A program made the translations under genes and the position numbers. Source: Eledone cirrhosa (lineage: Eukaryota). Taken from it: 64,000 nucleotides of DNA. The notes beneath the pieces were generated by a model that did not search any database, had not been told where the DNA came from, and saw nothing but the letters and a program-made list of their open reading frames with translations. Positions 15,500 to 56,203 of this stretch are shown here, one piece after another. Positions within the stretch are counted from its first letter, which is position 1; every line of letters starts with the position of its first letter. The stretch is taken from NCBI GenBank assembly GCA_964016885.1, contig OZ024745.1:126418001-126482000 (forward strand). Direction: 5' to 3'.

Positions 15500-15668
15500 C
15501 GATAAAAGACCTTGGGCTGATCGCTTTTGATGTCCGTTTTAAGCGCCGAAACATCTATCATCTGCGGTTACAGCTGATGAAGGATTTCTTCTCTTGTTTC
15601 GTCCATATTACCATCTTAAACTTTGTTTACAGTAACAACACAGCTCACTTCGTTTCTTGTAATTTTGT
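15500..15668 (+). mobile_element. TA-flanked Penelope-like terminal fragment with degenerate HHR (family of 44971-45188)
   Basis: CTGAT..CGCTT-loop-AAGCGCC-GAAA-CATCTA. Colinear with the reverse complement of 44971-45106. Confidence 0.5.
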
Positions 15669-15920
15669 ATATATATATAAATGAAAATAGAGAAATTAAT
15701 GTGAGCAAGAAGCCAACAGGAGATCATAATATATAAGTGACTATTACGTCTAGATGGAAAATATTTAACGTAAGATATGGGAAAATATATATAACGAAGG
15801 AGGTGTGGTAAGGAACCAGATGGAACCAGAGTAAAACCGAAGTTGCAGCTAATGCAGCATCTCTCGAAAGAACAATCCTCTGAAGCTTGCACAAGTACTC
15901 GATAAGACATATATATATAT

Positions 15921-16085
15921 GAAAGAGTCGGAACCCCGGCGGCTGAGCTCTTGCCATTTCAACGGTCTGAAACTAGCTGTTGAAACAGCAACAGCTCAGC
16001 CGCCGGGATCCTGATTCTACTACCCTAAGTATCAAGTATTCTGGTAAGTAATTGTCTAACCAATTTCTAACTGAATCCATCATGA
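15921..16085. mobile_element. TA-embedded hairpin element (ACGAAGG family), diverged copy
   Basis: Inverted repeat 15924-16018 containing CGGCTGAGCTC. Homologous to 44734-44937. Confidence 0.7.
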
Positions 16086-16231
16086 TATATATATATATAT
16101 ATATATATGTATATATATATGTGTGTGTGTGTGTGTGTGTGTGTGTGTGTGTGTGTGTGTGTGTGTGTGTGTGTAGATATATAGATATCAATGATATTAA
16201 TAAATGGAAACTATATTTATAAAACCATATT

Positions 16232-16292
16232 TATTCTATTATATATATTTCAAGGGTACCAAAACTTTGGTACGCCCTCATCAGATAAAATA
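16232..16292 (-). ncRNA. Minimal type-I hammerhead ribozyme, canonical core
   Basis: UAUUUUAU-CUGAUGA-GGGCGUACC AAAGUUUU GGUACCCUU-GAAA-UAUAUA-UA-AUAGAAUA. Stems I and II pair, stem III is palindromic, cleavage triplet AUA. Confidence 0.8.
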
Positions 16293-17199
16293 CAAAGTTT
16301 GTTTTATAAATAGTGGCATACCCAGGAATCAGACCTGAACGGTTCAAGTTCCGTCTGGATAGGGTATTTTAGGAAAATCTGCTTCGTAGAATCAAGACGT
16401 ATCTGAGGACCTTGCGATTTTCAGAGTCAGGTTCGATCATCACATCGATCGTGCCTCCAGCTGGTCGCCAGAGAAACGATTATAATATGTCCAATAACTT
16501 CCATTCGTCGCAACACTGATTCTCTTTTTTTCTGTGATATCATAGTCTGCTCTGAGAGCATTGAGTGGTCATACGGCCTACCGCATACGGACGCTTTAAG
16601 CATCCAACACCAATTATATATATATATATATATATATATATATATAACGAAGGAATTGTGGTAAGGAAACGGCTTGAGCTCTGCCGTCGGGGTCATACCT
16701 TTTCATATATATATATATATATATATATATACGTACATATGGTGTTTATGTCAGGGGTGTGTTGGGATCTAACAGCGACACAAAATTGAAATTCTTATTA
16801 TTGTTATTAGACTGCTAATAAGGAAGCTAAATTGGTAGCGTCATTACAGCATTGTACAGATAATTAGCGAATTGTTCAAAATGCCAGCATATGACAATGG
16901 TAAATAATTGTTTCTACTTTTGGCACAAAGCCAGCAATTACTCAGTGCATTACTGGTACTTTATTTTATCGACCCCGTAAGGATGAAAGTCAAAGTTAAT
17001 CTCGGCGGGATTTGAACTCAGAATGGAAAGGGCCATAACTCTATACGTCAACGCATGGCGTCCGACCCTCTACCGATACTATGCATTTGCTTTTGCTGGC
17101 ACAAAGAAAGAGCCATAGAAATACTCTCTAACAGAACATATCTTTCAACAATAGTGATGCGAGCTTAGACAGTATGGAGGGGCGTCGTAGTGTGCAGGA

Positions 17200-17908
17200 A
17201 CCAATGTTGCTGGTCGGTTCGTGGCCCCAGTGCAGAGAATGGAGAAAACCTTTCCGCGGAAGATGGCGAGAGAAACTCTCTGAATTAACAACTCCAACTA
17301 GCTGGACTCACACCTGCAGGTGGCTCACTACATCCCGATAATTGTTTCTACGTTAGGCACAAGGCCAGCAATTACCCAGTGCATTACTGGTACTTTATTT
17401 TATCGACCCCGTAAGGATGAAAGGCAAAGTTAACCTTGGCGGGATTTGAACTCAGAATGGCAAGGGCCGTAACTCTATACGTCAAAGCATCGCGTCCGAC
17501 CCTCTACCAATACTGCCAATCCAACCTTATAACATAATTGTTTCTACTTTAGGCACAAGGCCAGCAATTACCCAGTGCATTACTGGTACTTTATTTTATC
17601 GAACCCGTAAGGATGAAAGGCAAAGTCAACCTCGGCGGGATTTGAACTCAGATCGTAAAGGGACGTAACTATGCTGGAAAGCATGGCGTCCGACTCTCTA
17701 CCGATACTGCCAATCCACATCCCGATAATATTGAGTAGGGAGGTCGCCCGAAGGCCAAGAACACTGCAATTCTCCACTGCTATAGGTTCGACCACAAATC
17801 TATCAGAAAGTGACTGTTACATCAACAGTTTGCTATCTTCCGTCTGACGAGCAGCAAAACTTGAGTTAGTCGCCGAATGTTTCAAATTGCCGTTGGAGAA
17901 ACTGTCAC
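17200..17908 (-). mobile_element. CRE retrotransposon 3' fragment interrupted by two SINE copies (17339-17718)
   Basis: Minus strand gives RFVVEPIAVENCSVLG...VSLAIFRGKVFSIL. TSD ACATCCCGATAAT at 17330 and 17718. Confidence 0.8.
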
Positions 17909-18402
17909 TGAGCAGTATTTGTTCAAGCTCTTTACGTTCTGAGTTCACATCCCATCATGGCCAACTTTTCATTTCCTCCTTCCAGTGCCGATAAATAAAG
18001 TACCAGTGAAGTATTGGGGGTCGATATAACAAACTTTCTCCTTCCCCCAAATTTCTGGATTTGGGCCAAAATTAGAAAGAATTATTACTACTGTTACTTT
18101 AAAAAATTACTCTTCGTAGATCTATTTCTTTTCTGATACAAACACACACACACATACACACATACACACATACACACATACACACGCGCGCAATATATAT
18201 GTATGTATGTATATATATATATATATATATATATATATATATATATATATATATATATATATATATATATATGCATATATATTTATATATATATATATAT
18301 ATATATATATAGTAATAATAATAAATGTGAAGACTAAAATCCAAAGAGGGCTCGATAAGGATAAATATATATCAAATATATAAGAACCATAGAGCAAATA
18401 TT

Positions 18403-53734: not shown

Positions 53735-54335
53735 CACACAAATGAACTCTTTTGGCTTTACACCTACCATCATGCCGTTATAGTGCCGGCTACTTCCCAC
53801 ATCAGGGGACTCCCAAAGAGATCATTAAACATGGTTTGGACACCGCAGGCTTCCCTTCGCAACTTGAGATGGCGGGGCTGGGCCGAGGGGAGCAGAAGGC
53901 CAAATGGTATCACGATCTTCCTGTTCTCTTGTGGTAAGTCCCTCAACTCTAATGCAAAATGCGATGATCCTTTTTTCCAGCATCAATCTGGTGTATTTAG
54001 CGATAGACCCAGACTTCGATGCCTTACAAGAAGAACATTGCATTATGTCGAAGTATCAGCTGCTTTTTGACAGGTTAGTCGTCAAACCAATTCTGGTAGA
54101 GACATCCTGTGTTCTTAGCCCCGAGATCACCCACTTACACTCTTCTATCGAGGTCTTATTGGCCACTCACAAACGTGAGCACCGTCTGTTGGAATGGCAA
54201 TTTCAATGCGACTCCTTCGCCATCCTCTATTTTCTCCACTTTGACCCTTGTGATTACAAGACGGCTAGCGGCTAGGATTCTGCACACAAGGGTGCCTCCC
54301 ACGACACCTCCTAGGGCGTCCATTGGGGGTAGTTA
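53735..54335 (+). mobile_element. CRE-clade retrotransposon restriction-like endonuclease domain and 3' end, degenerate
   Basis: HLPSCRYSAG...IIKHGLDTAGFPSQLE..GL/RRPNGITIFLFSCGKSL.../KYQLLFDRLVVKPILVETSCVL, matching the Zn-knuckle plus R-P-D-G...D motif with frameshifts. Confidence 0.85.
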
Positions 54336-54781
54336 TGTTTGATCACTCCTTATTCACACACACACACACACATACATGCATATATACATACATACATACA
54401 TACATACATACATACATACATACATACATACATACATACATACATACATACATACATACATATGTATATATATATATATATATATATAAAAACAAATAAC
54501 GAAACGAAATTAAATTTCGTTTCGTTTGTAACTCACTTTTGTATGACTGACGCTTAAACAATTAAGTTAAAAATGTACATCTACATATGCATACTGAAAT
54601 ACTAGTGTGTATATGAATACACACACGTATACATATGCAGATGTAACAAGTCTTTCACTGGTTGCTTTACTGTGAGCAACCCAGCTATTCTGTATGTAAA
54701 CACACAGACAAACCGGTTTTTAGAGTCATACTGGTTTTCGAGGAAACACCTTCCCTCTATTCTCCAGAAAGCCAGACAAGG

Positions 54782-54826
54782 AATATTGAACTAGTTTCGT
54801 TGTTGTTACAACTCATCAGCAATATT
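54782..54826 (-). ncRNA. Minimal type-I hammerhead ribozyme, fully canonical
   Basis: AAUAUUG-CUGAUGA-GUUGU AACA ACAAC-GAAA-CUAG-UU-CAAUAUU: 7-bp stem I, 5-bp stem II, palindromic stem III, GUU site. Confidence 0.88.
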
Positions 54827-55248
54827 TACCTATCTACCGGCCTTTCTGGAGAATTGTAAAAGCACATATCGTTATATGCTTTTTCTATGAAAATTAGTAG
54901 TGGGCAGACTAATTTGCATAGAGTGTGAGTACGCACCGGTTCAGCGGAGACGATAAAAACAAATAACGAAACGAAATTAAATTTCGTTTCGTTTGTAACT
55001 CACTTTTGTATGACTGACGCTTAAACAATTAAGTTAAAAATGTACATCTACATATGCATACTGAAATACTAGTGTGTATATGAATACACACACGTATACA
55101 TATGCAGATGTAACAAGTCTTTCACTGGTTGCTTTACTGTGAGCAACCCAGCTATTCTGTATGTAAACACACAGACAAACCGGTTTTTAGAGTCATACTG
55201 GTTTTCGAGGAAACACCTTCCCTCTATTCTCCAGAAAGCCAGACAAGG

Positions 55249-55293
55249 AATATTGAACTAGTTTCGTTGTTGTTACAACTCATCAGCAATATT
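55249..55293 (-). ncRNA. Minimal type-I hammerhead ribozyme, second identical copy
   Basis: Same sequence as 54782-54826. Confidence 0.88.
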
Positions 55294-55887
55294 TACCTAT
55301 CTAGTCTGCCCAAAAATATTGGTTAAAATACATGAAGATAAGCGGTTATATAGTGCAAATGTTATATGTGTGGCACGCATGTGCGTCTTGTTTATATAGT
55401 GTGGCAGAGAGATATGTGTGGTAGAGGCACTTAGGTAGGTAAATAAGAGTGTTAGGTTGGTAGATCTGGTGGCAAATTCTTTATATGATTGATATAGTCT
55501 GTGTGTGAAGAAATATTATAAGCATTAAAGATAGTGCAAGCATTAAAAGTGTTATAAGTAATGGAGATGCACAGCGCAGGGATGTCAAGTATTTCATGTA
55601 CTTCGGCATTTTCATGGTCAGGAGAGTGTATTTTTCGATTATATGCCCTTCACATAATCCACGACAATCCAGTTAGAGATCGTAGTCTGGTGATCTTTAG
55701 TTCGATACAGGAGGTTGTTACGTTTCTAGAAACGCCATTGAATACCGCCCGGAAGTGTGTGTGTGGCAAAGGGGAGTTAATGCATGCGGGGAGTTAACTC
55801 TGGGGTTTCCATATCTAGCCATTAAAATGTGTCCCAATGTCTCTCGGCTGAAAAGGAGGTCATATAACTGTCCATGCATTAATAAAT

Positions 55888-55934
55888 TGCTCCGAAGAAT
55901 CCAAACATCGGTTTGGAGGAAACAGCTGTAAGCA
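55888..55934 (+). ncRNA. Type-I hammerhead motif with U4C variant core
   Basis: UGCU-CCGAAGA-A-UCCAAAC AUCG GUUUGGA-G-GAAA-CAGCUG-UA-AGCA, GUA site. Confidence 0.65.
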
Positions 55935-56203
55935 CAATAATGTTTTGAGCAGTTCTTTGATTCTTATATTTCATATTTCATATATATATATATATATATA
56001 ACGAAGGAAGTGTGGTAAGGAACCAGATGGACCATAACGCACCAAAGTACTCAATACTTGAGGTAGTAGAGTGGGTAATAGGAACCAGAATTAGCCGTCG
56101 AAACGGCTTGAGCTCAGCTGTCGGGGTCTTACTGGTTCCTATATATATATATATATATATATATATATATATATATATATATATATATATATATATATAT
56201 ATA

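Follow-up and report, generated by a model that had tools for sequence, protein, structure and literature searches.

Hammerhead-bearing insertions stacked in (TA)n tracts of Eledone cirrhosa: truncated Penelope-like element ends and likely non-coding companions

Hammerhead motifs and inverted repeats in the window

The stretch of DNA analysed here, called the window throughout, comprises 64,000 nucleotides of the Eledone cirrhosa contig OZ024745.1 (positions 126418001-126482000) in a 3.0-Gb assembly (GCA_964016885.1). Simple repeats are abundant in it, and many of its (TA)n tracts are occupied by short elements with hammerhead ribozyme motifs or with a fold-back (inverted-repeat) structure, which we sorted into families labelled F1 to F11. 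Judged from genomic sequence, these elements are probably stacked (TA)n insertions made by a TA-cutting enzyme of Penelope-like elements (PLEs) that would prime from both cut DNA ends; six of the families are truncated PLE ends and at least three others are likely non-coding.

A strict type-I descriptor found 5 complete hammerheads in the window, and a wider one that admits U3-A8 and U4C cores found 8. With the strict descriptor, one of 30 block-wise dinucleotide shuffles produced a match of score >=13. Together with motifs that are damaged, partial or rearranged (about 9), the total is at least 17 motifs in 11 families (Table 1). The original prediction of about 13 motifs from at least seven unrelated families was thus low in number and too strong on unrelatedness, as F2b and F3 have a common hammerhead and tail and F5 and F9 a common core start. 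It had also proposed at least eight long inverted repeats, and eight flanked by TA were located (two of these spans were trimmed of flanking TA by eye), along with a rearranged one; the inverted repeat at 25729-26153 is an exception, 1.8-2.2 kb away from TA. The reported lack of coding capacity held as well: tblastn with 19 open reading frames (ORFs) of the same genome detected no PLE protein remnants in the window. In an Rfam scan of the window only the motifs at 54.8 and 55.3 kb scored as hammerheads (HH9, 38.6 and 39.4 bits, gathering score 52); the remaining matches, nearly all low-complexity miRNA below gathering score, were discarded.

The window is typical of the genome and no special locus. 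Forty evenly spaced 10-kb loci (400 kb) contained 31 complete hammerheads, and six shuffles gave 0, 0, 1, 0, 1 and 1. The resulting density of about 78 per Mb, against 125 per Mb in the window, corresponds to an estimated 230,000 or so hammerheads genome-wide, both fold-back arms being counted. As predicted, they are oriented toward the adjoining TA: (TA)6+ was present within 300 nt downstream in 27 of the 31 and upstream in 12, compared with 16.9% of 3,757 random positions and 12 of 80 copies of a short interspersed nuclear element (SINE)-like repeat that served as control. A genome search with RF00163 returned 18 matches, all from a single TA-ending family absent from the window, and for this reason its match count was rejected as a measure of abundance. 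In that family (loci L013-L030) the ends lie 45 and 147 nt past the motif.

Families that continue into Penelope-like ORFs

The genome was searched with window segments of F1, F2a, F2b, F3, F4 (twice), F5, F7 and F9, plus F10, the best 40 of 642-1,902 first-look candidates being scored in each search, and with PF01541, for which 150 of 10,597 candidates were scored. Six of the 11 families (F3, F5, F6, F7, F9 and F11) run unbroken, elsewhere in the genome, into ORFs with reverse transcriptase (RT) and GIY-YIG domains, and the window copies are 84-99% identical to the ORF-linked ones. What the window holds of these families is PLE 3' ends, truncated at the 5' side and often inverted, whose parent elements bear ORFs; sequences of this class are known.

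In nine of the ten loci found through the F6 ORF end (one being the query locus), F6 follows the ORF on its strand at a distance of about 1.0-1.3 kb, and this ORF combines RT, a C-terminal GIY-YIG domain, a CxxxxCxxC linker and CCHH, as in Neptune-type PLEs. An RT/GIY-YIG ORF accompanies F7 in 8 of 15 loci; here RT is followed by a Cys linker and a GIY-YIG domain with CCHH, the arrangement of canonical PLEs with a C-terminal endonuclease (EN+), and the Atlas neighbours of F7 have PF26215, PF00078 and PF01541. ORF links were seen in 6 of 12 F9 loci and in 2 of 14 F5 loci, the latter across a continuous 1.2-kb untranslated region (UTR) whose contiguity was read. F3 is linked in locus L160 alone and F11 in L158 alone, where the ORF lies between two pseudo-long terminal repeats (pseudo-LTRs).

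No Pfam match was obtained for the ORFs of F3, F5, F9 and F11, which have the features of Hydra-type PLEs. Their C-terminal domain is of GIY-YIG type without CCHH and is preceded by a CxCx5C linker in L158, L160, L164 and L356 (the L359 fragment begins past the linker), and CxxC and CxH surround the conserved E and N, intact in L158, L164 and L359 and degenerate in L160 and L356. The one ORF N-terminus read, that of L158, has DKT and RWR where DKT and RWK would be expected of Hydra elements. All four families have a type-I hammerhead in the 3' end and a (TA)n target. By these motifs, rather than by an RT tree, F3, F5, F9 and F11 appear to be ends of Hydra-clade PLEs; F6 would be of Neptune type and F7 of Neptune or Nematis type. 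Long frames persist in the genome, among them two near-complete Neptune-type frames of 938 and 1,096 codons at L051:3809-6622(-) and L053:2775-6062(+), and L158:2640-7440 is a full Hydra-type copy with a single frame break.

Two apparent links were rejected: a 140-nt TA tract separates F2b from a Hydra ORF in L072, and in L121 the Hydra copy terminates in TA ahead of F4. A CUC...GAG hairpin stands at the start of the tail, just past the internal start site, in F3, F5, F9, F10, F11 and the RF00163 family; it is not visible in F1, F4, F6 and F7 and, being missing from F1, cannot name the driver of that family.

Likely non-coding families

The F1 hammerhead occurs in 5,142 exact genome copies (control 0). 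The F1 tandem units carry one type-I hammerhead each, as retrozymes do, and form arrays of up to 20 units with no PLE ORF in the loci read; in L001-L012, L165-L167 and L317-L346 no PLE ORF is contiguous with F1 on the same strand. Parts of F1 were found in DNA contigs of three organisms, and the tandem joint in two runs. No RNA run was listed for F1, a blank that counts neither way. In a set of 74 units from 12 loci, the median number of differences within an arm was 0 and the mean between opposite arms 0.46; between loci the median was 14 and the minimum 3, and none of 2,282 pairs were identical. One array has 18 identical units across both arms. Every within-array strand switch among the first 100 F1 hammerheads listed is divergent, and in several arrays the tail-less arm is much longer. 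The arrays are single-variant, and therefore each was likely copied from one RNA variant; on this DNA evidence the template would most simply be a circular monomer, likely made by hammerhead cleavage and copied in repeated rounds that start from both ends.

F2a is represented by 866 exact cores genome-wide, and in 27 of 30 position-ordered loci it turns back within about 10 nt of one point, no longer upstream sequence being common to them. F4 forms tandems of 530-800 nt. No linked ORF was found for F1, F2a or F4 in the loci examined, and these three (a 467-nt tandem retrozyme, a 165-nt element and the family with a rearranged hammerhead described below) are likely non-coding hitch-hikers, while F2b, F8 and F10 were placed in neither group.

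Some F1 copies adjoin other sequences. At the junction 55303/55304 of the window, F1 is joined 5'-to-5' or end-to-end to a Hydra piece, and at L321:1011-1830 to a Neptune piece; such joints could reflect template switching or later insertion. A nine-unit array adjoins an exon at L165:3835-4368(-) that resembles glutamine synthetase.

Fold-back ends and the mode of insertion

In every family the 3' ends fall at one terminal position and at one or two fixed internal positions, in most cases with TA next. The counts of ends followed by TA (F1 47/61, F2a 81/100, F5 90/113, F3 58/87, F7 44/83, F4 38/75) are lower bounds, as the ends are BLAST ends. A terminal end was paired with an internal one in 129 of 139 fold-backs, two terminal ends in 2 and two internal ends in 8 (139 of 152 table rows were kept after duplicate and mismatched rows were removed by hand). 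In 74 rows of monomeric fold-backs, with up to 3 duplicates among them, the internally started, tail-less arm reached >20 nt further 5' in 25 and the terminal, tailed arm in 5, the two being equal in 44.

A PLE protein has been reported to cut and extend both strands of AT-rich DNA and to start at two RNA sites that define the tail, hammerhead cleavage being dispensable in vitro (PMC11167929). In the mechanism that we favour, the GIY-YIG domain would cut both strands within (TA)n. Of the two DNA ends, one would prime at the RNA's terminal site and the second about 36-96 nt further upstream, at an AT-rich internal site. RT would mostly stall early, often at a hairpin near the hammerhead, and the joining of the two cDNAs head to head would leave a short, ORF-less fold-back with the tail on one arm. 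The template would be uncut or re-ligated RNA, because the hammerhead sits inside the inserted copies.

A fold-back could instead arise from a single cDNA that snaps back and is copied by RT, and the 44 cases of equal arm reach, the apexes at small palindromes (the F2a core, for example) and the near-identity of opposite F1 arms agree with such an origin. However, snapping back of a terminal cDNA cannot give a longer tail-less arm, and an internally started cDNA has no tail to copy. Because of this, the predominance of longer tail-less arms, also marked in several F1 arrays, makes two primed ends the better model and a snap-back unlikely. That the fold-backs might be miniature inverted-repeat transposable elements (MITEs), that is DNA transposons with TA target duplications and passenger hammerheads, is hardly credible. 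They are long TA-flanked inverted repeats, and the copies of F2a, like those of F5, turn at a single apex common to the family; but their ends are asymmetric (129 of 139 have the tail on a single arm) and not the fixed ends of symmetric terminal inverted repeats, arm lengths vary, many copies are single-armed and some continue into RT ORFs.

The original prediction had regarded all families as short, possibly uncatalogued, non-autonomous ribozyme retroelements mobilised by one TA-preferring PLE. The window without ORFs, the F1 arrays and F4 tandems without a PLE ORF in the loci read, and the fixed turn point of F2a without common upstream sequence are all compatible with this view. Even so, it is very improbable for the set as a whole and already refuted for the six families that extend into RT/GIY-YIG ORFs, among which three or more PLE types are represented. 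Those six are ordinary PLE ends, with which their novelty falls, and several PLE clades take the place of the single mobiliser; what stands is that the motifs are hammerheads of PLE type, that some families (F1, F2a and F4) are likely non-coding and that the insertions, probably PLE-made, are TA-targeted and polarised. The rearrangement of the F4 hammerhead had been overlooked.

Several points weigh against insertion from two primed ends and against the assignments built on it. Unequal arms could also result from later deletions at the centres of palindromes. The ORF links of F3 and F11 come from one locus apiece, and several search queries spanned the apex, which biases the best 40 candidates toward short fold-backs. 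The absence of ORFs from F1, F2a and F4 covers tens of loci out of hundreds to thousands. As to F1, identical units recur at several loci, units of 465 and 478 nt occur together in one array (C18), the template may have been a linear multimer derived from a source array of uniform units, and assembly polishing or gene conversion could have homogenised the tandem units.

A predicted rearranged hammerhead in F4

F4 presents all hammerhead core bases in the order cleavage site, GAAA, CUGAnGA (S-G-C), which is that of type-SGC hammerheads. Neither the type I and III descriptors nor a type II fit by hand accommodated it. An S-G-C descriptor fits nine F4 copies and also one unrelated stretch, and is weak alone, with 5 of 40 shuffled windows matching at an equal or higher score. 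A tighter F4 pattern gave 574 exact matches in the genome (reversed control 0). A pattern for the upstream hairpin gave 394 (control 0), and in 23 of 30 loci so chosen the two core boxes are present in the expected order. The two copies in the window are damaged.

Based on an alignment of 42 of 74 distinct copies, those retaining the 5' part, we propose a fold with six helices: P5, the hairpin P6, stem II, the interaction helix P4, stem III and stem I. In this fold the 10.x strand of stem II is predicted to lie upstream, and the strand after CUGAnGA to close P5. This further-upstream partner was preferred to a bridge strand by the upstream hairpin, which had at first been paired with the bases that follow the core. 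In the alignment 83.5% of cells pair, against 37-45% with partners slid, and 73 cells show double-sided changes, against 36 in shuffles. Compensation was found at stem I pair 5 (U-A 21, A-U 19) and at P5 pairs 1 and 4 (U-A 26 and A-U 13; C-G 14 and U-A 14, of 42), and P4 is wholly rewritten in one subfamily. The helix joining stems I and II is retained, with -11.7 kcal/mol in subfamily T for its own partner and -1.5 to -4.0 for those of other subfamilies. In this fold CUGAnGA is not directly followed by the stem II strand, for which the best-supported candidate lies upstream; block C would be split, because two helices would stand between A9 and G10.1 and the 10.x strand would be upstream.

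The 3' ends of Naiad_Obim and Naiad_Ovul (PMC8557442) show, by eye, the six-helix order of F4 with different sequence and a 6-bp upstream stem II. Both F4 and Naiad PLEs occur in (TA)n, F4 without an ORF and without a sequence match to Naiad ends. No Naiad ORF (N-terminal GIY-YIG, CxC, RT) was found on F4 in 69 loci covered with non-Naiad probe ORFs and an ORF scan, and the genome searched has 0 matches to the core motif of the octopus Naiad ends in print. F4 is likely a Naiad-type non-coding element, the likeness lying in the predicted fold alone. We lean slightly toward the view that F4 and Naiad elements possess an active hammerhead of an undescribed topology, not circularly permuted, whose core would be interrupted between A9 and G10.1, with extra helices closing it.

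It is quite possible, though, that F4 folds like any other type-SGC hammerhead, its stem II being 2 bp long (GG after the core, CC before GAAA), or is a non-catalytic protein-binding structure with hammerhead-like bases. The 2-bp pairing can form in most copies, the 5-bp upstream stem II is unchanged between subfamilies (neither it nor P6 covaries between them), and many core pairs are fixed by the search pattern. RNAalifold, which is blind to pseudoknots, recovers only P6 and stem III, 2 of the 6 helices. Four related subfamilies account for the few compensatory events in F4, pairing is poor in distal P5, and the alignment places P4 of subfamily T out of register. These points tell against the split fold. 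On the other side, the strand after the core pairs with the far-upstream strand with compensation at the two P5 positions given above, Naiad 3' ends have a different upstream stem II in the same place, and most loci chosen by the upstream hairpin alone retain the ordered core boxes.

If F4 cleaves, a stated design rule would be broken, since block C is taken to be uninterruptible in work on type-SGC hammerheads (Eckert et al. 2023, PMC10085705), and the claim that Naiads lack ribozymes would be reopened. Naiads were reported without canonical hammerheads, Naiad_Ovul being marked 'HHR_half_core' (PMC8557442), and a split hammerhead would explain this lack. F4 would then be a retrozyme class unseen by standard descriptors and, with the head-to-head F1 arrays, would suggest that PLE enzymes copy RNA circles from both cut ends.

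Comparison with known elements

The bulk of the set, described at the outset as a guild of ribozyme elements, is known biology, namely truncated PLE ends with minimal hammerheads; beyond it lie two candidate additions: the footprint left by insertion and, in F4 of this animal genome, the topology of the hammerhead. The (TA)n targeting, inversions and tails of PLEs have been published (Craig et al. 2021, PMC8557442), and the supplement of that work lists an octopus Hydra element, Hydra-1_Obim, among Hydra-clade PLEs with hammerhead and (TA)n target. F3, F5, F9 and F11 share with these the CxCx5C linker without CCHH, CxxC/CxH, a type-I hammerhead, insertion in (TA)n, copies in tandem and inverted arrangement and a tail at one end, and the F11-linked ORF of L158 has DKT as well. 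They differ in the number of families within one genome, the U3-A8 and U4C cores, UTRs of >1 kb and tails of 76-165 nt versus 30-40 nt (PMC8557442). F6 (P0001, P0002) resembles Neptune PLEs in RT, C-terminal GIY-YIG, CxxxxCxxC, CCHH and TA bias; F6 and F7 are new families relative to Neptune-type PLEs, F7 matching the domain order of Neptune or Nematis (PMC8557442).

Minimal PLE hammerheads, including a U3-A8 variant, have been described in opposite-strand pairs 100-700 bp apart from truncated PLEs (Cervera and de la Pena 2014, PMC4209133), and those of the window are like them in the palindromic stem III and the extra base between 9 and 10.1. Our genome-wide estimate contrasts with the thousands per genome given there, and the TA polarity was measured here. 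In the accessible part of an octopus Penelope annotation ribozymes are not mentioned (PMC13282606).

Retrozymes have been proposed to derive from PLEs (PMC7229834; 10.64898/2026.07.22.740005). F1 resembles the animal non-LTR retrozymes of these two sources in its non-coding tandem units with one type-I hammerhead each and differs from them in its 467-nt length, its head-to-head single-variant arrays in (TA)n and its PLE-type terminal and internal ends. In the accessible texts, the words 'microsatellite' and 'inverted' have zero occurrences in PMC7229834 and one each, in another context, in 10.64898/2026.07.22.740005. F4 is like the type-SGC hammerhead HRIMA-1 in element order, 5-bp stem I, a link of about 3 nt between stems I and II and the joining helix; in contrast, its predicted 10.x strand of stem II lies 5' of all other elements and two extra helices would stand between A9 and G10.1 (PMC10085705). 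It also resides in an animal retroelement, whereas the searches described in that paper were of metatranscriptomes, metagenomes and RefSeq. Neither a split permuted Naiad hammerhead nor TA-targeted head-to-head retrozyme arrays were found in the literature searched, in which few subscription papers or supplements were within reach.

Together, the pairing of terminal with internal ends, the difference in arm length and the single-variant arrays offer a testable model for the tandem and inverted structures of PLEs, left open by Craig et al. and Frangieh et al., and would tie an animal retrozyme to PLE enzymes through an insertion footprint and not through co-occurrence. Short PLE fold-backs run the risk of being mis-annotated as MITEs or lost under simple-repeat masking.

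Other features of the window

Table 1. Elements, hammerhead motifs and inverted repeats located in the window.
Feature	Position	Strand	Remarks
F4, 5'-truncated, 3' end in TA	15505..15667	+	Damaged rearranged hammerhead; GAAA 15548-15551 ahead of CUGAUGA 15574-15580; upstream stem II strand deleted
Old F5-like fold-back between TA tracts	15921..16050	.	
F3, Hydra-type PLE 3' end	16177..16345	-	Complete type-I hammerhead 16232-16292; 90-92% to ORF-bearing L160
F5 fragment between TA tracts	16647..16704	.	
F2a fold-back, unit of about 165 nt, likely non-coding	18312..18526	.	Apex ~18468 within hammerhead core; stem I 5' strand missing
F2b fold-back and tail	18604..18998	.	Complete hammerheads 18653-18697(-), 18801-18853(+)
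F6 fold-back, young Neptune-type PLE 3' end	35959..36355	.	U3-A8 hammerheads, cores 36103(-), 36171(+)
F8 copy between TA tracts	36430..36750	.	No complete hammerhead found
F5 fold-back, Hydra-type PLE 3' end	44735..44934	.	Only hammerhead 3' half kept
F4 fold-back	44972..45187	.	Each arm with the G and C blocks of the rearranged hammerhead (cores 45072(-), 45134(+)); apex without the cleavage block
F8 copy between TA tracts	45258..45544	.	No hammerhead found in this piece
F9, Hydra-type PLE 3' end	45925..46239	-	U3-A8 hammerhead, damaged in window copy
F3 copy, short inversion and tail	48891..49205	+	Hammerhead core 49019, GAAA mutated
F7 fold-back, C-terminal GIY-YIG PLE 3' end (putative Neptune/Nematis type)	49261..50177	.	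Hammerhead-like 49541(-), 49941(+), stem I imperfect
F10, short rearranged copy	50193..50314	-	3' half of hammerhead-like motif
F5 copy between TA tracts	53010..53144	+	
F1, 1.75 units of 467-nt tandem element, retrozyme type, 3' end in TA	54489..55303	-	Complete hammerheads 54782-54826, 55249-55293
F11, rearranged 3' UTR and pseudo-LTR of Hydra-type PLE	55304..55979	.	U4C hammerhead, core 55892(+)
F5 copy, small inversion, between TA tracts	56001..56139	.	
Complete hammerhead cores	16284(-), 18690(-), 18808(+), 36103(-), 36171(+), 54819(-), 55286(-), 55892(+)		Descriptor with U3-A8, U4C
Damaged or partial type-I motifs	49019(+), 49541(-), 49941(+), two arms ~18467, ~46010(-)		Read from sequence
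Hammerhead 3' halves	~50245, 44850/44897, 56098		Read from sequence
Rearranged, non-type-I motifs	15574(+), 45072(-), 45134(+)		Family F4
TA-adjacent inverted repeats (8)	~15935-16007, 18361-18526, 18604-18907, 35959-36320, 44811-44934, 45020-45186, 48891-49006, 49304-50181		
Rearranged inverted repeat	55304-55979		Family F11

F2b is kin to F3, and longer F2b forms occur. F8 is a TA-inserted tandem element with a unit of about 600 nt (L162:3878-4742) and shows no hammerhead in the parts seen. Longer copies of F10 (L183-L191) have, by eye, a possible type-I fold with a long stem II and the core changes U4C and A6U.

A degenerate tandem repeat of about 4 copies of 134-138 bp spans positions 23156-23691. 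Short frames at 25199-25750 lie beside the inverted repeat at 25729-26153, which has 160-bp arms and is distant from TA; this is likely a DNA-transposon derivative, and the frames look like the possible remnant of a Tc1/mariner transposase. The SINE-like dispersed repeat used as control (families D19 and D20) is 120-190 nt long, is present in 13-16 copies at 2381-62403 and reaches 49 copies per 400 kb in the genome sample with no TA bias.

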